DNA from: Stegostoma tigrinum
Lineage: Eukaryota
Reading direction: 5' to 3'
Length of the DNA stretch: 64,000 bases
Assembly: GCF_030684315.1 (NCBI RefSeq)
Contig: NC_081354.1
Span: 130,983,314 to 131,047,313, forward strand
The position numbers were made by a program, and so were the translations under genes. Below, piece by piece: positions 13,580-56,274 of the stretch. Every line of letters starts with the position of its first letter. Positions within the stretch are counted from its first letter, which is position 1. The notes under the pieces are model-generated. The model did not search any database. It was not told where the DNA came from and saw only the letters and a program-made list of their open reading frames with translations.

Positions 13580-13797
13580 ATAATGGGAACTGCAGATGCT
13601 GGAGAATCCAAGATAATAAAATGTGAGGCTGGATGAACACAGCAGGCCCAGCAGCATCTCAGGAGCACAAAAGCTGACGTTTCGGGCCCAGACCCTTCAT
13701 CCTCTCTGATGAAGGGTCTAGGCCCGAAACGTCAGCTTTTGTGCTCCTGAGATGCTGCTTGGCCTGCTGTGTTCATCCAGCCTCACATTTTATTATC
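13580..13797. mobile_element. PLE family A inverted (hairpin) insertion
   Basis: About 92-bp inverted arms (13610-13701 / 13708-13799, 2 mismatches, 6-nt loop); 16-bp direct repeat TTAATAATATAAAGTG at 13564-13579 and 13798-13813. Confidence 0.92.
13702..13737 (+). ncRNA. Minimal type I hammerhead ribozyme (intact core)
   Basis: CTGATGA (13706-12), extra A, GGG/TCTAGG/CCC stem II, GAAAC (13726-30), GTC (13731-33); predicted cleavage after C13733. Confidence 0.75.
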
Positions 13798-17842: not shown

Positions 17843-18753
17843 GAACTGTAAATGCTGGAAATCAGAAAGAAAAACAAAAATTACTGGAAATATTCAGCAG
17901 GTCTGGCAGCATCTGTGGACAGAAATCATAATAAATGTTCTGAAGATGGTTCACTGGACCTGAAACATCCATTCTGCTTTCTCTTTACAGAAATTGGAAG
18001 TCATGTTGAGAGTGTGCAGGACATCAGTGAGACCTATTCCGAAATATTGTGCCCAATTCTGGTTGTCCAGTTTAGGAAGGTTATTTTTAAGCTGGAGAGG
18101 GTTCAGAAGAGATTTATTAGATAGACATATGGATGATAGTATGAGGTAGGGGTGGAGGTTAGATATACCTTATGATTAGGGTAAAAGTTTGGCTCAACAT
18201 CGTGGGCTGAAGAGCCTGTACTGTGCTGTACTGTTCTATGTTCTGTGTTCTATATATACCAGGATGTTGTCGGGTATGGAAGGTTTGAGTCATAAGGAAA
18301 AGCTGGATAGGCTGGGAATTTTTTTCACTGGAGCATGGGAGGCTGAGAAGTGACCGAATAAAAGTTTATAAAATAGTGAGGGGTATAGATAGAATTAATG
18401 GTAGTTTTCTTTTCCCTAGAATGGGGGATTTCAAGACTAGGGGGCACATTTTTAAGGTGAGAGGAGAATGATTTAAAACAGGCACATGCAACAATTTTTT
18501 TACACGGGGGTGGTTCACGTGTGAAATGAACTTCCTGAGAAAGCGGTGGATGTGGGTAGAATTACAACATTTAAACGGCATTTGGATAAGTACATGGATA
18601 GGAAAGGTTTGGAGGGATATGGGCCAGGAGCAGGCAGGTAGGACTAGTTTAGTTTGGGACTATGGTCAGCATGGACCGAAAAGTCTGTTTCATGACTATA
18701 TGACTCTATGCTGCCAGACCTGCTGAGTTTTTGCAGCAATTTCTGTTTTTGTT
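17843..18753. mobile_element. PLE family D hairpin interrupted by CR1 fragments
   Basis: Left part 17843-17990 contains CTGAAGATGGTTCACTGGACCTGAAACATC; the right arm resumes at about 18708 (TGCTGCCAGACCTGCTGAGT); CR1 pieces (KLERVQKRFIR) fill about 17993-18707. Confidence 0.7.
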
Positions 18754-21952: not shown

Positions 21953-22020
21953 TGATAACAAAGGGTGGAGCTGGATGAACACAGCAGGCCAAGCAGCATC
22001 TTAGGACCACAAAAGCTGAT
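21953..22020 (-). mobile_element. Partial PLE terminal repeat (family A)
   Basis: GATAACAAAGGGTGGAGCTGGATGAACACAGCAGGCCAAGCAGCATC...AAAAGCTGAT. Confidence 0.8.
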
Positions 22021-24069: not shown

Positions 24070-25440
24070 TGTCATGGAGTAATAAAGTCCTACAGCACAA
24101 AACCAGGCCCTTCAGCCCAAACAGGTCTATGCCAAACGACATGTCCAACCATGCTAACCCCACTTCCCTGCAATTGGCCCATATTCTCCTAAACGTGACC
24201 TGTCTATGTATTTGTCCAAATGCCTTTTAAATGTTGTTAATGTATCTGTCTCATCCACTTCTGCTGGCAGCTTGTTCCAAATGTGTACCACCCTCTGTGT
24301 AAAAACACTTGCCCGTCAGGTTCCGTGCATCCTTTCCCCTCTTAGTTCAAACTGATGCCCTTTAGTCCTCGATTCCCCAACGCTGGGAAAAAGACTGAGT
24401 GCATTCACCCAATCCATGCATCTCATGATCTTATACACTTCTATAAGACCCCCGTAATCTCCTAAAGAAAAACGTCCTAGCTTGTCCAACCTCTCCCTAT
24501 AACTCAGTCCCTTGAGTCCCAGCAACATTCTTGGAAACTTCTTCTGCACTCTTTCCAATTTAATAATATCTTTCCTATAGCAAGGTGGGCAAAACTGAGC
24601 ACAATACTCCAAGTGCAGCCTCACCAACATCCTGTACAACTGCAACATGGCTTCCCAACTTCTGTACTCAATGCCCTGACTGATGAAGGCCAGTATGCCA
24701 AAAGCTTTCTTCACTGCCCTATCTACCTGGGACTCCACTTTCAGAGACCTGTGAACCTGAATTCCAAGGTCCCTTTCTTCCACTATATTCCTAAATCCCC
24801 ACCATTCACAATAAAGCTCCTACCTTGATTTGACTTTCCAAAACACAATAGCTCACAGTTATCTGTGTTAAATCCCATTTGTTGTTTCTCAGCCCACTTT
24901 CCCAGTTGATCTAGATTCATAGAATCCCTACAGTGTGGAAACAGGCTCTTCAGCCCAACAAGTCCACACCGACCCACAGAGCATCCCACCTAGACCCATC
25001 CCCCTAATCCACATATCCATGAACACTACGGGCAATTTAGCATGGCCAATCCACTTTGCCTGCACATCTTTGGACTGTGGGAGGAAACCGGAGCATCCAG
25101 AGGAAACCCACGCACACACCGGGAGAATTTGCAAACTCCACACAGTCACCTAAGAGTGGAATTGAACCTGGGCTCCTGGCGCTGTGAGGCAGCAGTGCCA
25201 ACCACTGAGCCACTGTGCTGTGATCTTGTTGCAATTTCTGATAACCTCCCTCACTGTCTATGATACTGCTTATTTTAGTGTCATCTGCAAATTTACTAAT
25301 CCTGCCTTGTACATTGTCATCCAAATCATTGATATAGATATGAAAAAACAATGGACCCAGCACAGACCCCTGAGGCACACCACTAGCCATAGGCCTCCAG
25401 TCTGACAAGCAACATTCTACTATTACCCTCTGCATCTTAC
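24070..25440 (-). mobile_element. CR1-type LINE RT/3' fragment split by a SINE
   Basis: SGVPQGSVLGPLFFHIYINDLD...KFADDTK (25037-25435) and LEYCAQF...LERVQKKF (24316-24783). Confidence 0.9.
24913..25220 (-). mobile_element. HE1-type tRNA-derived SINE
   Basis: A box TGGCTCAGTGG and B box GGTTCAATTCC on the - strand; TSD TGATCT (24907-12 / 25221-26). Confidence 0.9.
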
Positions 25441-28654: not shown

Positions 28655-29990
28655 ATAAAGAACATAGAACATAGAACATAGAACATTACAGCACAGTACA
28701 GGCCCTTCAGCCCTCGATGTTGTGCCGACCTGTCATACCGATTTCAAGCCCATCTAACCTACACTATTCCATCTACGTCCATATGCTTATCTAATGACGA
28801 CTTAAATGTACCTAAAGTTGGCGAATCTACTACCGTTGCAGGCAAAGCGTTTTATTTCCTTACTACGCTCTGAGTAAAGAAACTACCTCTGACATCTGTC
28901 CTATATCTTTCACCCCTCAATTTAAAGCTATGCCCCCTCATGCTCGCCATCACCATCCTAGGAAAAAGGCTCTCCCTATCCACCCTATCTAACCCTCTGA
29001 TTATTTTATATGTTTCCATTAAGTCGCCTCTCAACCTTCTTCTCTCTAATAAAAACAGCCTCAAGTCCCTTAGCCTTTCCTCGTAAGACCTTCCCTCCAT
29101 ACCAGGCAACATCCTAGTAAATCTCCTCTGCACCCTTTCCAAAGCTTCTACATCCTTCTTAGAATGCGGTGACCGGAACTGTACGCAATACTCCAAGTGC
29201 GGCCGCACCAGAGTTTTGTACAGCTGCAGCATAACCTCTTGGTTCCAGAACTCGATCCCTCTATTAATAAAAGCTAAAACACTGTATGCCTTCTTAACAG
29301 CCCTGTCAACCTGGGTGGCAACTTTCAATGATCTGTGTGCATGGACACCGAGATCTCTCTGCTCATCTACACTACCAAGAATCTTCCCATTAGCCCAGTA
29401 CTTTGCATTCCGCTTACTCCTATCAAAGTGCATCACCTCACACTTGTCTGCATTAAACTCCATTTGCCACATCTCAGCCCAGCTCTGCAGCTTATCTATG
29501 TCTCTCTGCAACCTACAGCATCCTTCCTCACTGTCCGCAACTCCACTGACCTTAGTGTCATCTGCAAATTTACTAACCCATCCTTCTACACCCTCATCGA
29601 GGTCATTTATAAAAATGACAAACAGCAGTGGACCCAACACCGACCCTTGTGATACACCACTAGTAACTGGTCTCCAGGATGAACATTTCCCATCAACTAC
29701 CACCCTCTGTCTTCTTTCAGCAAGCCAATTTCCAATCCAAACTGCTATATATCCCACAATTCCATTTGTCTGCATTTTGAACAATAGCCTACTATGGGGA
29801 ACCTTATCGAACGCCTTGCTGAAATCCATATACACCACATCAACCGGTTTACTCTCATCTACCTGTTTGGTCACGTTCTCAAAGAACTCAATAAGGTTCG
29901 TGAGGCACGACCTTTCCTTCACAAAACCGTAGACAATGACGAGTTAAAGATCAATGCCAAAGGCTCGGCAATCTCCTCCCTGGCTTCCCA
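28655..29990 (-). mobile_element. Young 5'-truncated CR1-type LINE
   Basis: (ATAGAAC)n tail at about 28655-28686 and an uninterrupted RT frame. Confidence 0.95.
28852..29922 (-). CDS. CR1 ORF2 reverse transcriptase, partial, open for 356 aa
   Basis: YMDFSKAFDKV, SGVSQGSVLGPLLF, KFADDTK, RPHLEYCVQF. Confidence 0.8.
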   Translation of the reverse strand: MKERSCLTNLIEFFENVTKQVDESKPVDVVYMDFSKAFDKVPHSRLLFKMQTNGIVGYIAVWIGNWLAERRQRVVVDGKCSSWRPVTSGVSQGSVLGPLLFVIFINDLDEGVEGWVSKFADDTKVSGVADSEEGCCRLQRDIDKLQSWAEMWQMEFNADKCEVMHFDRSKRNAKYWANGKILGSVDEQRDLGVHAHRSLKVATQVDRAVKKAYSVLAFINRGIEFWNQEVMLQLYKTLVRPHLEYCVQFRSPHSKKDVEALERVQRRFTRMLPGMEGRSYEERLRDLRLFLLERRRLRGDLMETYKIIRGLDRVDRESLFPRMVMASMRGHSFKLRGERYRTDVRGSFFTQSVVRK

Positions 29991-30809: not shown

Positions 30810-30978
30810 GAGATCACAGTAGGTCAGGTAGCATCCATGGAGAGAGACCAAACTAATGTTTTGAGTCTAGCTGACTCTTCATCTGGACTCGAAACGTTCG
30901 CTTCCTCTCTCCCCATGGATACTGCTGTGATCTCCAGCATTTGCTGTTTTCGGTTCAGATTCCATCATCAGCAGTCAT
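30810..30978. mobile_element. PLE-type hairpin (family D-like)
   Basis: Inverted arms AGATCACAG...CCATGGAGAGAGA / TCTCTCCCCATGG...CTGTGATCT around GACTCGAAACGTT. Confidence 0.6.
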
Positions 30979-37340: not shown

Positions 37341-37544
37341 ATTATAATTGGCCAGTAATGATGTGGAGGCCAATGTGGGGGTGCCGGTGTTAAACTGGGG
37401 TGGGCAAGGTCAGAGGTCACACGACACCGGGTTATAGTTCCGACAGGTTTATTTGAAATCACAAGCTTTCAGAGCATTGCCCCTTCATCAAGTTGGCTCC
37501 AAAAGCTTGTGGCTTCAAATAAACCTGTTAGATTGTAACCTGGT

Positions 37545-37636
37545 TAACAAAGTGTGGAGCTGGATGAACACAGCAGGCCAAGCAGCATCTCAGGAGCACA
37601 AAAGCTGACGTTTCGGGCCTAGGCCCTTCATCAGAG
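37545..37636 (-). mobile_element. Solo 92-bp PLE family A repeat
   Basis: 15-bp TSD AGATTGTAACCTGGT (37530-44 / 37637-51). Confidence 0.92.
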
Positions 37637-37638
37637 AG
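37604..37638 (-). ncRNA. Minimal type I hammerhead ribozyme (intact core)
   Basis: - strand: CTGATGA-A-GGGCCTAGGCCC-GAAAC-GTC-AG. Confidence 0.75.
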
Positions 37639-37802
37639 ATTGTAACCTGGTGTCGTCTGACTTCTGACATTAATATTCTATCTTATCAAATTTGCCAAAC
37701 AAGCAAGAGGCTGATAAATCTCAACAAGTAAATCAGAGTGGGTGGTTGGTAACTTTATCTCATTGCTTGCCCTCAATGTTGGACACTGGGCAACACCATC
37801 AT

Positions 37803-37897
37803 AGAGTAACAAGGGGTAGAGCTGGATGAACACAGCAGGCCAAGCAACATCAGAGGAGCAGGAAAGCTGATGTTTCAGGCCTAGGCCCTTTTTCAGA
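37803..37897 (-). mobile_element. Solo PLE family A repeat, degenerate hammerhead
   Basis: Family A match; core reads CTGAAAA...TGAAACATC. Confidence 0.8.
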
Positions 37898-38515: not shown

Positions 38516-41290
38516 GCCTCAGAGACATGGTTGCAGGGATTTCAGGACTGGCAGTTAAGCATCCAAGGATTCACAACATAACGAAAAGATGGGGAGGTGG
38601 GCAGATGGGGTGGGGTTGCCTTGTTAGGCAAGAATGAAATTAAATCTAAGGCACTGAATGACATAGGTTCAGAGGATGTGGAGTCTGTGTGGGTGGAGTT
38701 GAGGAACACAAAGGCAAAAAAACCATAATGGGAGTTATGTACAGACCTCCTAACAGTGATCAAGACCAGGGGCGCAAGATGCACCGAGAAATAGATAGGG
38801 CACGTCAGAAAGGCAAGGTCACGTTAATCATGAGGGACTTCAATATGCAGGTGGACTGGGTGAATAATGTTGCTAGTGGATCCAAAGAAAAGGATTTCAT
38901 GGAATGTTTACAGGATGGCTTTTTGGAACAGCTTGTGATGGACCCCACAAGGGAGTAGGCTATTCTGGACTTAGTGCTATGTAATGAGCATGACTTTATA
39001 AAAGACTTTAAAGTAGGGAAACAATTGGGAGGCAGCGATCATAATATGGTAGAGTTCAGTCTGCAGTTTGAAAGAGAGAAGGCAAAATCGGATGTAATGG
39101 TGTTACAGTTAAATAAAGGTAATTACAGGGGCATGAGAGAGGAATTGACGAAAATCAACTGGAAGCAGAGCCTAGCGGGGAAGACAGTAGAGCAACAATG
39201 GCAGGAGTTTCTGGGTGTAATCGAGGACACAGTACAGAGGTTCATCCCAAAGAAAAGAAAGATTATCCGGGGTGGGATTAGACAGCCATGGCTGACAAAG
39301 GAAGTCAGGAAATGTATCAAAGAAAAAGAGACAGCCTATAAAGTGGCCAAGAGCACTGGGAAATCAGACGCTTGGGAAGGCTACAAAAACAAACAGTGGA
39401 TAACAAAGAGAGCAATAAGGAAGGAGAAGATCAAATATGAAGGTAGGCTAGCTAGTAATGTTAGAAATGATAGTAAAAGCTTCTTTCAATACATAAGAAA
39501 CAAACGAGAGGCAAAAGTAGACATTGGGCCGCTGCAAATCGATGCTGGAAGGCTAGTGATGGGAGATAAGGAAATAGCTGAAGAACTTAATAAGTGCTTT
39601 GCATCAGTCTTCACAGTGGAAGACATGAGTAGTATGCCAACAATTAGGGAGAGCCAGGGGGCAGAGTTGAGTATGGTAGGCATTACAAAAGAGAAAGTGC
39701 TAGAAAACTAAAAGGTCTAAAAATTGATAAATCTCCTGGCCCCAATGGGCTACATCCTCGAGTTCTGAGGGAGGTGGCTGAGGGAATAGCAGAGGCTTTC
39801 GTCATGATCTTTCAAAAGTCACTGGATTCTGGGAAAGTCCCAGATGATTGGAAAATTGCTGTTGTAACTCCCTTGTTTAAGTAAGGATCAAGGCAAAAGA
39901 TGGAAAATTATAGGCCGATTAGCCTAACCTTGGTTGTTGGTAAAATTCTAGAATCCATCGTTAAGGATGAGATTTCTAAATTCTTGGAAGTACAGGGTCG
40001 GGTTAGAACAAGTCAACATGGATTTAGTAAGGGGAGGTCGTGCCTGACAAACCTGTTAGAATTCTTTGAAGAGGTAACAAGTGGGTTAGACCAGGGAAAC
40101 CCAGTGGATGTTATCTATCTAGGCTTCAAAAAGGCCTTTGATAAGGTGCCTCATCGGAGGCTGCTGAGTAAGGTGAGGGTCCATGGTGTTCGAGGTGAGC
40201 TACTGGCTTGGATTGAGGATTGGCTGTCTGACAGAAGGCAGAGAGTTGGGATAAAAGGCTCCTTTTCAGAATGGCAACCAGTGACAAGTGGTGTCCCGCA
40301 GGGTTCAGTGTTGGAGCCGCAGCTGCTCACTTTATATATTAATGATCTGGATGAAGGGACTGGGGGAATTCTGGTGAAATTTGCTAATGATATGAAGATA
40401 GGTGGACAGGCAGGTAGTATTGAGGAGGTGGGGAGGCTGCAGAAAGATTTAGACAGTTTCGGAGAGTGGTCCAGGAAATGGCTGATGAAATTCAACGTGA
40501 GCAAATGCAAGGTTTTGCACGTTGGCAAGAAGAATACAGGCATGGACTATTTTCTAAGCAGTGAGAAAATTCATAAAACAGAAGAACAAAGGGTTGGTCC
40601 AGGATTCTCTAAAGGTTAACGTGCAGGTAGAGTCCGTGATTAAAAAAGCAAATGTAATGTTGTTGTTTATCTCAAGAGGGTTGGAATATAAAAGCAGGGA
40701 TGTTCTTCTGAGACTTTATAAAGCTCTAGTTAGGCCCCATTTAGAATCCTGTGTCCAATTTTGGGCCCCACACCTCAGGAAGGGAATACTGGCACTGGAA
40801 TTTGTCCAGCGGAGATTCTCATGGATGATCCCTGGAATGGTAGGCCTAACATACAATGAGTGGCTAAGGATCCTGGGATTGTACTCATTGGAGTTTAGAA
40901 GGTAGAGGGGAGACCTATTAGAAACTTACAAGATAATGTATGGCTTCGAAAGGGTGGGTGCTGGGAAGCTGTTTCCATTAGGCGGGAAGATTAGGACCCA
41001 TGGGCACAGCCTTAGAATTAGAGGGGGTAAATTTAAAACAGAAATAAGGAGACATTTCTTTAGCCAGAGAGTGGTGGGCTTGTGGAATTCATTGCCAGTG
41101 CAGTGGAGGCCGGGACGTTAAGTGCCTTGAAGGTAGAGTTCAATAAATTCTTGATCTCACGAGGAATCAAGGGCCACGGGAAAAGTGCAGGGAAGTGGAG
41201 TTGAAATGCCCATCAGCCATGATTTAAATGGCAGAGTGGACTTGATGGGCCGAATGGCCTTACTTCCACTCCTATGTCTTATGGTCTTAT
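38516..41290 (+). mobile_element. CR1-type LINE, most of ORF2 (endonuclease plus RT) with stops and frameshifts
   Basis: YRPPNS, RDFN, GGSDHNMVEF, NYRPISLT, SGVPQGSVL; tail TATGTCTTATGGTCTTAT. Confidence 0.95.
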
Positions 41291-41498
41291 AATAGGAACT
41301 GCAGATGCTGGAGAATCCGAGATAATAAGATGTAGAGCTGGATGAACACTGCAGGCCAAGCAGCATCACAGGAGCAGGAAGGCTGACATTTAACGCCTGG
41401 ACCCTTCATCAGGGTCTAGGCCCGAAACGTCAACCTTTCTGCTCCTGTGATGCTGCTTGGCCTGCTGTTTTCATCCAGATCTACACCTTGTTATCTCA
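41289..41498. mobile_element. PLE family A hairpin insertion
   Basis: Inverted arms meet at about 41410; TSD TAACTTCAGACC at 38493-38504 and 41499-41510. Confidence 0.85.
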
Positions 41499-45737: not shown

Positions 45738-47243
45738 CTTAATGAAGAACAAATAATTCTAGGCTATGGGAGAAATGTCAGGTCAACGTAAAATTGATTA
45801 ATTCTTTTTAACAAACCAGTACAAAGCGACACAAGTCCTTTACTTCCACTGCATCATTCTGTGAAAACCTTATAAGTTGAACTTTCAAACAGATAGGAAG
45901 GAATGCTTCTGAAAGCAGCATCTAGTAATATAATTACCAAAGAGTTAAATTTATTGCATCGTACTACAAGATCATTGAAACTCTGCTTTGGATTACTGAA
46001 AAATAACACAGTTTTACAGTAATATAAATTCTGATTTTACTGGTTTCATTTCAGTATTTCATCTCAAACCAAAATTCCAAATGTTTAAAATGCTTAAATC
46101 CTGATGGTTCTATGGGAAAAGAGCTTGAGACAACATGGAGCCATTGTTTATTTATTTCATGAATTTTCAATTACTTTGTTATTCCAGTGATGATTTGCAT
46201 TGTTGTAATATTCCATCAGATGAGGATTACCCACAACATTTTAAATTGCTATTTAGTATATTCATCACAGGGCTATTTTTCAGCTATGTATATTGTGAAA
46301 GAATACCTTATTAGATGACCTGTTGGACCTTTGGAATCTCAGTTTTAAGGTGATGTGATGTCTGGCTGCCTGCATCTTTGTAATTTCAAGAAGATGACAA
46401 GATAAATATTTACTTTAGACACAATCAATGTTTGACTATCATTCATTTGCACTGGATATCAAAATTATATCCTTTATATTAGTAATAATAATAACTTTTA
46501 AATGCAAGGCCAGCACAGTACAGTTTGCCAACAATTATTCAGTTTTTCCAAACTTGGTGAGGCATTCCAATAGAAAGCTGTCTCTAACTCTCTCAACCAT
46601 TTATTCTTACAGAGTAAAGCAATTTCTCAGTGATGGATTAGTGCATTCCTTTTGGAGTTCAATGTTTATTTTTCCTTCTTTAACATTCATCCTTGAAGCT
46701 GCAATCAGCAACACACATGTTAAATAACATTTGTTCCCCGATTTTCTAGGTAAAGAGATATTCAGAAGGATGCACAGTGATAATGGAGGAACAGTGATAC
46801 ATTTCCCAAGTCAGGACAGTGAATGGTTGAGAGAAGAATTTGCAGGAGTTGGGATTCAATGTATCTGCTGCCCTCATCCTTGCTGTCTGAGGAGCCTTGG
46901 TGAGTTTCTGCATTTTGTAGATTTCACAGACTACTGGTCCAGTAGTGGATGGCAGTGTGGACTTCATCAAGGTCAGAAAACCACTTTTCTTTAGAATCGT
47001 TGTACAAGTTATGTATCTGACGTAAGTAGACATGACAATGAGATTTTGCTTGAGCTGTAGTTGAAGTGTCATGAGTCTCGTTTATAGTATTGGGGAGTTC
47101 TGACAGTGCTCCTATTCCAGATAGCGAAACCAAATTCCTTTCCAGAAAGACAATGCTGGAAGGACAAATGATATCAACCTGAGAACAGCCGGAGGTTCCC
47201 ACTCTGACAGGCCCAAGCTGAGTGTATGTCGATAGGATATTCT

Positions 47244-48205
47244 GTATGAAGGGACTGTAGGTATTCTGGCAAAGTTTGCCAATGACACGAAGATAGATGG
47301 GCAGGCAGGTAGTACTGAGGAGGTGGGGAGGCTGCAGAAAGATTTAGACAGTTTAGGAGAGTCGTCCAGGAAATGGCTGATGAAATTCAACGTGAGCAAA
47401 TGCGACGTCTTGCACTTTGGAAAAAAGAATACAGGCATGGACTATTTTCCAAACGGTGAGAAAATTCATAAAACAGAAGTACAAAGGGATCTGGGAGTGT
47501 TGGTCCAGGATTCTCTAAAGGTTAACTTGCAGGTAGAGTCTGTGATTAAGAAAGTGAATGTAATGTTGTCGTTTTTCGTAAGAGGGTTGGAATATAAAAG
47601 CAGCGATGTGCTTCTGAGACTTTATAAAGATCTAGTTTGGCCTCATTTAGAATCCTGTGTCCAATTTTGGGCCCACACCTCAGGAAGGACATACTCGCAC
47701 TGGAGTGTGTCCAGCGGAGATTCACACGGATGATCCCTGGAATGGCAGGCCTAGCATACAATGAATGGCTGAGGATCCTGGGATTGTACTCTTTAGAGTT
47801 TAGAAGGTTGAGGGGAGATCTAATAGAAACTCACAAGATAATGTATGGCTTAGAAAGGGTGGACGCTGGAAAGTTGTTTCCATTAGGCAGGGAGACTATC
47901 ACCCTTGGGCACAGCCTGAGAATTAGAGGGGGTCAATTTAAAACGGAAATGTGGAGACATTTCTTCAGCCAGAGAATGGTGGGCCCGTGAAATTCATTGC
48001 CACGGAGCGCAGTGGAGGCCGGGCGTTAAATGTCTTCAAGGCAGAGATTGATAAATTCTTGATCTCACAAGGAATTAAGGGCTACAGGGAGAGTGCAGGG
48101 AAGTGGAGTTGAAATGCGCATCAGCCATGATTAAATGGCGGAGTGGACTCGATGGGCCAAATGGCCTTACTTCCACTCCTATGTCTTATGGTCTTATGGT
48201 CTTAC
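47244..48205 (+). mobile_element. CR1-type LINE 3' kb, same subfamily as 38516-41290
   Basis: Closely similar to about 40350-41290, including the diagnostic PHLESCVQFW; (CTTATGGT)n tail; sits in an older CR1 fragment extending to about 48520. Confidence 0.92.
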
Positions 48206-48805: not shown

Positions 48806-48865
48806 AGCTTTTGTGCTCCTAAGATGCTGCGTGGCCTGCTGTGTTCATCCAGCTCCACACTTTGT
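48806..48865 (+). mobile_element. 60-bp PLE family A fragment
   Basis: AGCTTTTGTGCTCCT...CTCCACACTTTGT flanked by TAACA (48800-04 / 48866-70). Confidence 0.8.
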
Positions 48866-50199
48866 TAACACCGCAATGAAGTCTGACTTAAGAGAAGACC
48901 CTTTTAACAATGTGTCTAACAACATATACCATATCTTTGTACAGTTAAAGGAGCGGTACAGCTGCAATAAACTATATTTTGTTTGCTAAAAGACATCTTC
49001 TAGTTTGACCAGAAGCTAGCTATCCTCATCCACACAAACTGTGTAGGCCCTGGAGAAACATATGATTAGATGATATAGATGGCAGTACATACACAAGTAA
49101 TGATTTTGAGCCTCACTGCAATACAATACACAGGGCTATATTAAATGATGTACCACAGTGCATCCCCAATATTGTCCTGTTTCCTTCTTTGTCACTAATT
49201 AAAGTGTTTATGCTGCTTACTGATATATAGTTCCATCAGTGCTGACAATCTTTCACACCTTCATGTATGAGCTTCAGCAGTGAGTGTATTTTGACTATAG
49301 ATGACATTACATCTTAGATTTTTGATACCCTTCACCTATAGGTAAGAACTTGCAATTTCTGGAAGAGTGGTCAAATATCCATCAAAAGGGGCAAAACCTG
49401 GATTTTTTTTGTCATTTCGAGTGCAGAAGTATCGAGGCTAATTGCAGTGGCACTACAATTTTCTGACTGATATTATTGTAAAAGTTAATGTTGCATATTT
49501 GTACCAAAGCATATGGCTCCTCTCACATTAGAGACAGACAAATAATAGTGGTTAAACTGGAGGGTCATCGCACCTCACATGGGGGAGAATTTGATTCCTT
49601 CGTGGTAACCTTAGCCAGTATGGGAATTGTACCTATACCGTTAGCATCAACATATCCACTCCTTTGACTAATAGCCATGACTCATTGCCTTGACATATGA
49701 AATGTTTCCTGTCCATTCTGTGAGTTGGGTATCCATTCCTGGCAGCAACATTCCAATGAAAGGTGCTGTGAAGTGCAGCATTGAAGATAAGAAGTATAAT
49801 GTAAGTGGGTTGAAGATGTACCATGGTGTTGCAGTGAAGATGCAGCTATACATCAAGGATGCCGAGGACCTTGGGAGCAGGGTGTGCATGGTCATTGCCT
49901 AGTAATGTGCCCTGAGATGTTGGTGTCTAATGTTCAACATACATGTTGACAGGAACAAATAGTGAACTGGTTAGTGGAGTCACGACATCTAGTTTCTATT
50001 CAGCAGTTAGGAGAATAGGAAACTGTATAATCAATAAAAAGGTTAACTTTTATAGTACAACAGCAAAGTGAAGCAAAAAAAAACAAAAAAGTGCTTAATT
50101 TACTTCTGCAAACAAACAGGGAAAGCTTGCCTTTCAAGCAGCAACAGATCTACAGAACGATCACTTCACCCAACTGTCAGAACTGGAGGTCAACTCAGT

Positions 50200-54910: not shown

Positions 54911-55409
54911 TATTTAAAAACTTTCTACCCGACATTGGGTAGCTGGTCGAAGTCTGTTCTATTCAGCATTAACCAGATCTTACATGCAATTTAATCAGCA
55001 GCTTAAAGGGACGGCTGGTGAACAGAACAAAAAGATTAGTTTTGATTTTTTTTAAATGCACTTGCATTTCTGCAAACTGCACACAAGTCACCAAATATTG
55101 TTTGTCCCTGATTGTCTAACTAGATCATCACATCACCGTGACCCCCTCAGCCATCTTTCCCCATGCCAGATCTTGCCTGAACATGCTGCCATAATTGTAA
55201 CAGCCCAAAATTGGTGTCAATCTCTGAAGGGATTTTGGGGATGGGTATCTGCTGTCCACAGCTTTCTGATCTAATTTCTATGAGGTCAAACATCTGACTT
55301 CAGTTGGGCTTGAGGTCTACCTGTTCCTGCACGGACACTTTATGTGCAACCACTTTGTACTAGCATGTTGGTATTCTTGCATTTCCCCTAACAGGGTTCA
55401 ATGAAAGTC

Positions 55410-56199
55410 ACATCTGCCAATGTGGTATACTGCATCCACCGTACCCGGTGTGGCTTCCTCTACATTGGGGAAACCAAGCGGAGGCTTGGAGACCGCTTTG
55501 CAGAACACCTCCGCTCAGTTCGCAACAAACAACTGCACCTCCCAGTCGCAAACCATTTCCACTCCCCCTCCCATTCTCTAGATGACATGTCCATCATGGG
55601 CTTCCTGCACTGCCACAATGATGCCACCCGAAGGTTGCAGGAACAGCAACTCATATTCCGCCTGGGAACCCTGCAGCCATATGGTATCAATGTGGACTTC
55701 ACCAGTTTCAAAATCTCCCCTTCCCCTACTGCATCCCTAAACCAGCCCAGTTCATCCCCTCCCCCCACTGCGCCACACAACCAGCCCAGCTCTTCCCCCC
55801 CACCCACTGCATCCCAAAACCAGTCCAACCTGTCTCTGCCTCCCTAACCGGTTCTTCCTCTCACCCATCCCTTCCTCCCACCCCAAGCCGCACCCCCAGC
55901 TACCTACTAACCTCATCCCACCTCCTTGACCTGTCCGTCTTCCCTGGACTGACCTATCCCCTCCCTACCTGCCCACCTATACTCTCTCCACCTATCTTCT
56001 TTACTCTCCATCTTCGGTCCGCCTCCCCCTCTCTCCCTATTTATTCCAGTTCCCTCTCCCCATCTCCCTCTCTGATGAAGGGTCTAGGCCCAAAACGTCA
56101 GCTTTTGTGCTCCTGAGATGCTGCTTGGCCTGCTGTGTTCATCCAGCCTCACATTTTGTTGTCTTGGAATTCTCCGGCATCTGCAGTTCCCATTATCTC
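55410..56199 (+). mobile_element. Young 5'-truncated Neptune-type PLE (GIY-YIG plus terminal repeat)
   Basis: VVYCIHRTRCGFLYIGETKRRLGDRFAEHL...LGTLQPYGINVDF; 12-bp TSD TCAATGAAAGTC (55398-409 / 56200-211). Confidence 0.95.
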
Positions 56200-56274
56200 T
56201 CAATGAAAGTCTTGTCAATTTTCAAGTTATTTATGTAGCTAATATTGAATGCAAAAGCACGTTGAAGTTAAAGA

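Follow-up and report, generated by a model that had tools for sequence, protein, structure and literature searches.

Penelope-like elements (PLEs) of the EN+ type leave copies that are 5′ truncated, optionally carry a 30–40 bp tail, and have pseudo-LTRs (pLTRs) that occur as solos or head to head, with TSDs and an Inr-like TCACT in the pLTR (accessible parts of PMC3846280, PMC8557442 and PMC8969392). There, solo pLTRs are put down to recombination or deletion, and self-priming on an antisense template is given as the origin of palindromes. Family A, the subject of this analysis, shares all of this anatomy but departs from those models in two respects: a cap-type G is found at its ends, on the sense strand, and these ends concentrate at two RNA-end positions. 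Poseidon PAc of Anolis carolinensis resembles family A in that two internal RT starts define its tail and both strands are cut and extended, and further in its predicted dimer and in having uncleaved RNA as main substrate (PMC11167929). PAc belongs to another clade, however; its ORF starts inside the hammerhead ribozyme (HHR) whereas that of family A starts ~165 nt downstream, and no RNA reads end at its HHR site, whereas a minor genomic class of family A ends there (PMC11167929). Penelope of Drosophila virilis initiates transcription within the pLTR, at an internal promoter with an Inr (excerpt of PMC2377424), as proposed below for family A, but there 46 nt and a 75-nt intron separate the start from the HHR region downstream, while the start inferred for family A abuts HHR stem I. 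The minimal HHRs of PLEs have a minimal core, a palindromic loop 3 and a short helix I, like family A, and are mostly single motifs from truncated PLEs; the circular-RNA template model proposed for them predicts neither a stop at −4 nor a cap G, unlike what family A displays (PMC4209133). Full-length L1 and SVA copies share with family A an untemplated 5′-junction G, read as reverse-transcribed cap, and 1–2 nt of microhomology (excerpt of PMC3287187). In L1/SVA this G marks full-length copies primed at poly(A), whereas in family A it marks the shortest copies, because priming would be internal, near the 5′ end. How PLE pLTRs, solos and palindromes form, which strand serves as template, and whether minimal HHRs cut in vivo are stated as open (PMC3846280, in part; PMC4209133; PMC11167929).

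In the window, the whole 64,000-nt stretch of Stegostoma tigrinum DNA analysed here, the minus strand of a 92-bp insert comprises a minimal type I HHR (CUGAUGA at 37634, GAAA at 37614–37611, ACGU loop) and a further 62 nt (Table 1). Element positions are counted from the C of CUGAnGA as 0, and on this scale predicted HHR cleavage leaves a 5′ end at +28. The HHR was called from its core motif and from the minimal-HHR description in the literature (PMC4209133); an Rfam scan gave no match at gathering score, and the monomer folds into an alternative hairpin spanning 0 to +29 (z −2.0 for the 41-nt piece). The sequence bears out the preliminary description of a 92-bp HHR unit flanked by perfect 15-bp repeats within the right arm of an inverted pair from a different HHR family with AAGCUU, and terminal anatomy supports its assignment of this host to another PLE-type family. 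Family B, the host and a putative PLE, has an HHR, two 3′ ends with a tail, and head-to-head pairs. The host span that had been given, 37409..37668, holds at its right end but not at its left, where the arm has a tail and reaches ~37358. The insert lies outside the host ribozyme, ~36 nt beyond the point where cleavage of the host is predicted. In the left-arm HHR of the host, U replaces C3, and the right arm that bears the insert has no CUGAnGA, that is, it lacks the 5′ half of the ribozyme. Positions 37637–37638 double as element positions −3/−4, a 2-nt microhomology at the inferred transcription start; because the first two bases of a −4 start (CT) are common to the TSD, the insert start can be placed anywhere from −2 to −4, and it has no extra G. 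Five further solos said to begin near CUGAnGA (1837, 1977, 13160, 37897 and 54678) do so, with BLAST starts at −4, −9, −10, −2 and −5, and in the alignment they diverge within ~4 nt of CUGA. The insert is a solo pLTR, an already known kind of PLE product (PMC4209133; PMC8969392, in part), and as a single locus it is ordinary.

Table 1. Coordinates of the insert, its host and related family A copies in the window.
Feature	Position	Strand	Remarks
Family A solo pseudo-LTR, 92 bp	37545..37636	-	Positions −2 to +89, counted from the C of CUGAUGA; tailless, of the short 3′ end type
Family A minimal type I hammerhead core	37607..37634	-	CUGAUGA, stem II, GAAA, ACGU loop, GUC; motif match
Predicted cleavage of insert HHR	between 37607 and 37606	-	From sequence and the minimal-HHR description of PMC4209133
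TSD copy at insert 3′ (primer) end	37530..37544	.	Bond after 37544 is the recurrent A-into-B hotspot
TSD copy at insert 5′ end	37637..37651	.	Identical 15-mer
Host family B, left arm	37358..37495	-	Degenerate HHR from 37491 with AAGCUU loop; first of its 3′ ends near 37409; tail reaching ~37358
Host family B, right arm	37495..37668	+	Starts inside stem II, split by insert, resumes at 37652, without tail
Neighbouring older family A solo copy	37807..37897	-	Start at −2
Family A head-to-head pair	13614..13795	.	Joined at HHR 5′ boundary, 16-bp TSD
Longer 5′-truncated family A copy	55392..56200	+	GIY-YIG end, 3′ UTR, HHR at 56072, tail; 12-bp TSD

The longer copy in the table links the insert to a coding element. 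There the insert's unit is preceded by a GIY-YIG fragment (PF01541 in window 55392–55844, E 0.0013, below cut-off) and a pyrimidine-rich 3′ UTR. Two loci elsewhere in the 3.2-Gb genome, L131 and L132, are full-length pLTR-ORF-pLTR copies with ~3.5 kb between HHRs; each has a single ORF with RT, a CxxxxCxxC linker directly before the GIY-YIG domain, and that domain at the C terminus, the RVT_1 and GIY-YIG Pfam matches all lying below the curated cut-off. The GIY-YIG-linked copy and these two loci together identify the insert's unit as the pLTR core of an autonomous PLE. A CxxxxCxxC linker marks Neptune/Nematis (PMC8557442, in part), and family A is classified here, by its linker motif, as a putative Neptune-type EN+ PLE. 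It has the pLTRs, partial tandems, inverted 5′-truncated copies and optional 30–40 bp tail of such elements, its exact tail-to-body junctions number 1,012 genome-wide, and its pLTR holds a minimal type I HHR by core motif, with predicted ribozyme activity. The 3′ UTR also contains a 39-bp tandem repeat of 2.9 copies (55716–55827) and, from −30 to −22, a polypyrimidine tract ending in CAG that resembles a splice acceptor, recalling the intron beside the HHR of D. virilis Penelope. As a cause of the 5′ peak described next, a splice acceptor at −22 was rejected, few ends lying there.

Endpoints were collected from a 1.064-Mb sample of C1–C6 (the window, 400 kb of neighbouring sequence and six 100-kb blocks) that holds 280 family A copies. 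The 3′ ends are bimodal, with 110/279 at +90–99 and 124/279 at +125–134, the two ends being +92 and +127; in anole PAc it is two internal RT starts that give the PLE tail signature (PMC11167929). The 5′ ends were analysed for 272 copies, 8 that start beyond +60 having been dropped. They peak at the hammerhead boundary instead of spreading smoothly, as the endpoint check suggested in the preliminary description had asked, with 72/201 at +3 to −6 of CUGAnGA where 4.2 were expected (35/121 among unpaired copies). The local hazard of 0.043/nt, ~20 times background, sustains the view that the unit is discrete and not the outcome of random 5′ truncation, while further upstream, beyond −30, it holds steady at 0.002/nt, as in memoryless truncation. 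Ends are most frequent at −4/−5 (36 copies), 11 copies form another, smaller maximum at +2, and the peak is several nucleotides wide, −5 to +2, which counts against a sharp RNA start. Genome-wide, exact matches to the young core number 73,885, 64,747, 55,121 and 51,685 when extended to −2, −4, −6 and −8, which are drops of 12.4%, 14.9% and 6.2%, and breaks at −4 outnumber those at −10 ~25-fold (877 vs 36). Peak-length copies make up 31–60% of each subfamily (32/102 in A1, 18/41 in A1b, 42/70 in A2), and 63 of the 102 A1 copies are long. In small samples of families B and C (n = 15 and 34), endpoints scatter over −1 to −5.

The position of the peak coincides with initiator motifs, for which we took the TCT and Inr consensus from PMC4581360. 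In natural long copies of A1, a TCT motif has its +1 at −4, at the 5′ peak; an Inr has its +1 at −4 in A2 and family C, and at −7 in family B, against background rates of 0.002 and 0.011 per nt in the TCT/Inr scan. If reverse transcription ran off a capped RNA end, the junction should gain a G, and this was scored by fixing a non-templated base two positions out and recording the base before −4 in the non-C cases, with a background of 0.36 for G. Base tallies from the genome-wide pattern searches are hand counts of listed rows, limited to the first 100 by genome order except where every row was listed, while totals are whole counts. An extra G is present in 28/36 non-templated bases for A1 (first 100 of 2,436 matches in genome order; p 4e-7) and in 22/33 for A2 (first 100 of 3,334 matches; p 3e-4), whereas control break points have no G excess, with 4/7 at −10 and 8/27 at +13 (Fisher p 5e-4). 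Ten loci with the G that were inspected comprise four solos with TSDs, four hairpin junctions, one inverted tail and one tandem junction. No such excess is seen in family C, where the first 100 of 1,370 matches comprise 22 G, 38 A, 7 T and 33 C, and the 36/51 of family B is confounded by inverted arms that themselves end in G, 5/15 of its G loci being flagged as hairpins and ~10 looking hairpin-like by eye. It is likely that the 5′ peak marks a transcription start at an initiator motif in the pLTR, and likewise that the extra G of short copies is a copied cap, both readings being drawn from genomic sequence. A strong-stop strand transfer that leaves a cap scar in long copies was considered and found no support: point mutation in these copies gives 45 G to 55 A. 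Long copies, which run-off cannot produce and which bear no cap scar, would then have to arise by priming in a downstream pLTR or by a jump that leaves no scar.

A smaller set of ends lies at the predicted cleavage site. Perfect head-to-head palindromes centred on −4 number 1,035 genome-wide, and those centred on the AGCT just after the predicted HHR cut 709, while control centres give ~50 (ACGT four bases upstream of AGCT) and 23 (GGCC at +55). Unpaired breaks, scaled roughly from 11, 20 and 21 counted rows, come to ~1,500 at +28, ~650 at +30 and ~500 at +13, and breaks at +29/+30 occur as well. This class appears genome-wide only; the 1.064-Mb sample has no 5′-end peak at +28, so the class is minor, and the cleavage site as the main 5′ end was rejected on the same count, the main end being −4. 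The reading that we favour is that the +28 class derives from RNA cleaved by the HHR in vivo, with RT stalling as rival; a cleaved RNA template would fit best because its cDNA would end in the self-complementary AGCT. Within the window, family A copies start at or beside the predicted cleavage site at 48806–48867 (+) and 21956–22019 (−). Elsewhere, L338 (G000:C1:6174418-6177441) is a cleavage-site-centred family A hairpin with a TSD, lying in the same family B segment as the window insert.

The target is duplicated in 10/32 peak solos (null 1/155) and, by the same rule, in only 3/60 long unpaired copies. Across 61 de-duplicated events, partly at loci selected by the search patterns, TSDs are 10–17 bp long with a mode of 14, and an A stands at −7 from the primed nick in 44/61 events and in 27/40 on the second side of hairpins. 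Head-to-head pairs account for 130/280 copies. Their arms are more alike than random copies (0.19 vs 0.42 mismatch at variable columns), only 3/34 pairs combine different subfamilies, where random pairing would give 43%, and at one junction (G000 block C6, near C6:15043590) a family C copy is joined to a family A copy, each copy starting at its own HHR boundary; the last suggests that cDNAs from two different families were joined. Most pairs would accordingly come from one RNA or subfamily, and a few from two RNAs. Such pairs fit a dimer, itself inferred, that extends both nicks on sense RNA, and do not need the antisense template proposed in the accessible part of PMC3846280. In the window, the arms at 13614/13704 differ at a few positions, and another family A pair occupies 41323–41493. 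Self-targeting is also seen, where an older family A copy has received a further one, with a TSD, at its 3′ end (C1a-457099; L262).

Nesting of A in B recurs at the bond that the window insert occupies, a feature absent from the preliminary description. Genome-wide, a tail-type A end follows the window-site B 12-mer 41 times and a control B 12-mer 3 times, where uniform insertion predicts 7.1 and 15.4; these predictions use B 12-mer numbers scaled up from sample counts of 6 and 13, the control being twice as common. Of 20 retrieved from these 41 junctions, 16 carried a B flag and the remaining 4 were B-like by eye, and 8 have exact TSDs of 13–17 bp with B resuming after the TSD. A register-free count places 76/98 A-B junctions no more than 2 nt from the bond used in the window, another 14 at a site 6–7 nt upstream and 8 elsewhere; this tally was made by eye, in one orientation and for the tail-type end only, and at least two rows are duplicates. 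The junction variants differ, so that independent insertions are indicated and not one amplified chimera. The hotspot is a preference, not dedicated targeting, and receives a small share of all A insertions. The target matrix was tried as its full explanation and is a partial one only, ranking the hotspot at the 94–98th percentile with better sites 5 nt away.

We regard it as probable that the insert is a solo pLTR made by internally primed reverse transcription running off a likely capped 5′ RNA end. What the genomic copies display directly, namely the parent element, its two 3′ ends, the 5′ peak at −4/−5, the extra G, the TSDs, the A at −7 and the hotspot in B, would be connected as follows. 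The element's enzyme would nick both strands ~14 bp apart; reverse transcription would begin internally, at the PLE tail of the RNA, and run off the RNA's likely capped 5′ end at the putative transcription start just upstream of the hammerhead. Extension from one nick would yield a solo and extension from both a head-to-head pair, while a minority of templates already cleaved by the HHR would give the copies that end at +28. The family B site may be hit because it suits a loose two-fold symmetric preference of the endonuclease.

The same peak could arise if RT, meeting no RNA end at −4, released just past the HHR hairpin at 0 to +29 and added a C by terminal transfer, the +28 class then reflecting stalling at the hairpin base with AGCT fold-back. 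The stability of that hairpin in the monomer (z −2.0, 41-nt piece) and the breadth of the peak, with ends at −2 to +2, speak for such a structural stop, as do the additional breaks at +29/+30 and the fact that AGCT is self-complementary however the end arose. We nevertheless judge it unlikely, in view of the lack of G excess at other break points, the initiator motifs that fall at the peak in different sequence contexts, and the surplus of unpaired breaks at +28 over +30 and +13, rough as those numbers are. Recombination between the two pLTRs of full-length copies, in the manner of solo LTRs, would likewise leave copies that begin at −4 with a G and a TSD; L131 is full-length and starts near −4, and recombination or deletion has been suggested for solos without TSDs (PMC3846280, in part). 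Yet at 0.002/nt truncation over 3.5 kb leaves ~0.1% full length, to be set against the peak-length share of every subfamily, two of three full-length candidates have longer 5′ pLTRs, and pairs with both arms ending at tail sites go unexplained, so this origin appears very improbable. Ordinary random 5′ truncation with chance nesting is scarcely credible: truncation is memoryless upstream of −30, and nesting looked unremarkable in small samples (2/23 B copies; 1/60 B loci with A nearby), but the 20-fold hazard at +3 to −6 stands against the former, and chance nesting is overturned by 41 junctions against 3 at a control 12-mer twice as common and by the 76/98 at one bond.

The preliminary description had proposed that the unit may spread by itself, as a retrozyme-like non-autonomous element, via unit-length or circular RNA. 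Animal non-LTR retrozymes, like this unit, are non-coding, pLTR-related and dispersed as monomers, with a type I HHR and TSDs >4 bp (PMC7229834, in part; 10.64898/2026.07.22.740005), and have been proposed to derive from pLTRs (10.64898/2026.07.22.740005). The discrete length, the TSDs and an intact HHR core in 14/46 peak solos would agree with such mobility, and solos could be transcribed if the promoter is internal. Retrozymes, however, are tandem repeats (PMC7229834, in part; 10.64898/2026.07.22.740005) of 150–450 bp with canonical HHRs and circular RNAs, whereas the family A unit has 92–130 bp and a minimal HHR and is neither tandem nor permuted; the comparison with 10.64898/2026.07.22.740005 rests on its main text, and its supplements may list this family. 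Tandem arrays were found in none of 30 inspected cases among 201 end-to-start junction matches (one, at L262, is a nested insertion with TSD) and not in the window, and permuted monomers in none of 14 copies starting at +22 to +32. In the 1.064-Mb sample there is no solo-private variant in A1 (32 solos vs 63 long copies) or A1b, and one non-private column in A2; flanks among the 46 peak solos are essentially unshared (one weak 5′, no 3′). With no sign of a solo-only lineage and the main end at −4 instead of the cleavage site, retrozyme-like mobilisation is quite improbable, and the autonomous element gives rise to the 92-bp unit as a by-product.

More broadly, and tentatively, the tens of thousands of PLE stubs may be read as a fossil map of the RNA of the element, on which a capped sense start lies at the base of the hammerhead and HHR cleavage in vivo accounts for a second end. 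A dimeric RT-endonuclease would make a symmetric 14-bp staggered cut and prime at one end or at both, in some cases using different RNAs or even RNAs of different families, and a fixed bond in the pLTR of one PLE family would be the target of another. If true, this reading would settle whether the template is sense or antisense and would be evidence for cutting by minimal PLE hammerheads in vivo. The genome offers testable answers at base resolution for the start site, the cleavage end and the 14-bp staggered cut with A at −7, and the family B site is a natural preferred substrate for an in vitro assay. Discrete ends, a cap-type G, a cleavage-site class and a cross-family hotspot were not found described in the literature searched, whose scope lay outside subscription journals, and work on cartilaginous-fish PLEs gave nothing relevant beyond 10.64898/2026.07.22.740005.

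Many mini-elements of 260–450 bp consist of pLTR, ORF start, 3′ UTR and pLTR, each with a different internal junction (C1a+291757/292016, C3+76399/76744, C1a-119897/119561, C4+52244/52553; L101-L130); with their two closely spaced HHRs, they could be retrozyme precursors. An HHR-like repeat in the window at 17940–18000 (+) belongs to family C, with a GUUAAC loop region, an Inr TCAGTT at −4 and a 4-bp stem I, and one at 30948–30971 (−), from 30971, is possibly of another family. The window also holds LINE-type reverse transcriptase fragments at 28852–29943 (RVT_1 E 1.8e-24 for 28855–29943), 38959–40619, 47236–47733 and 24316–24819.
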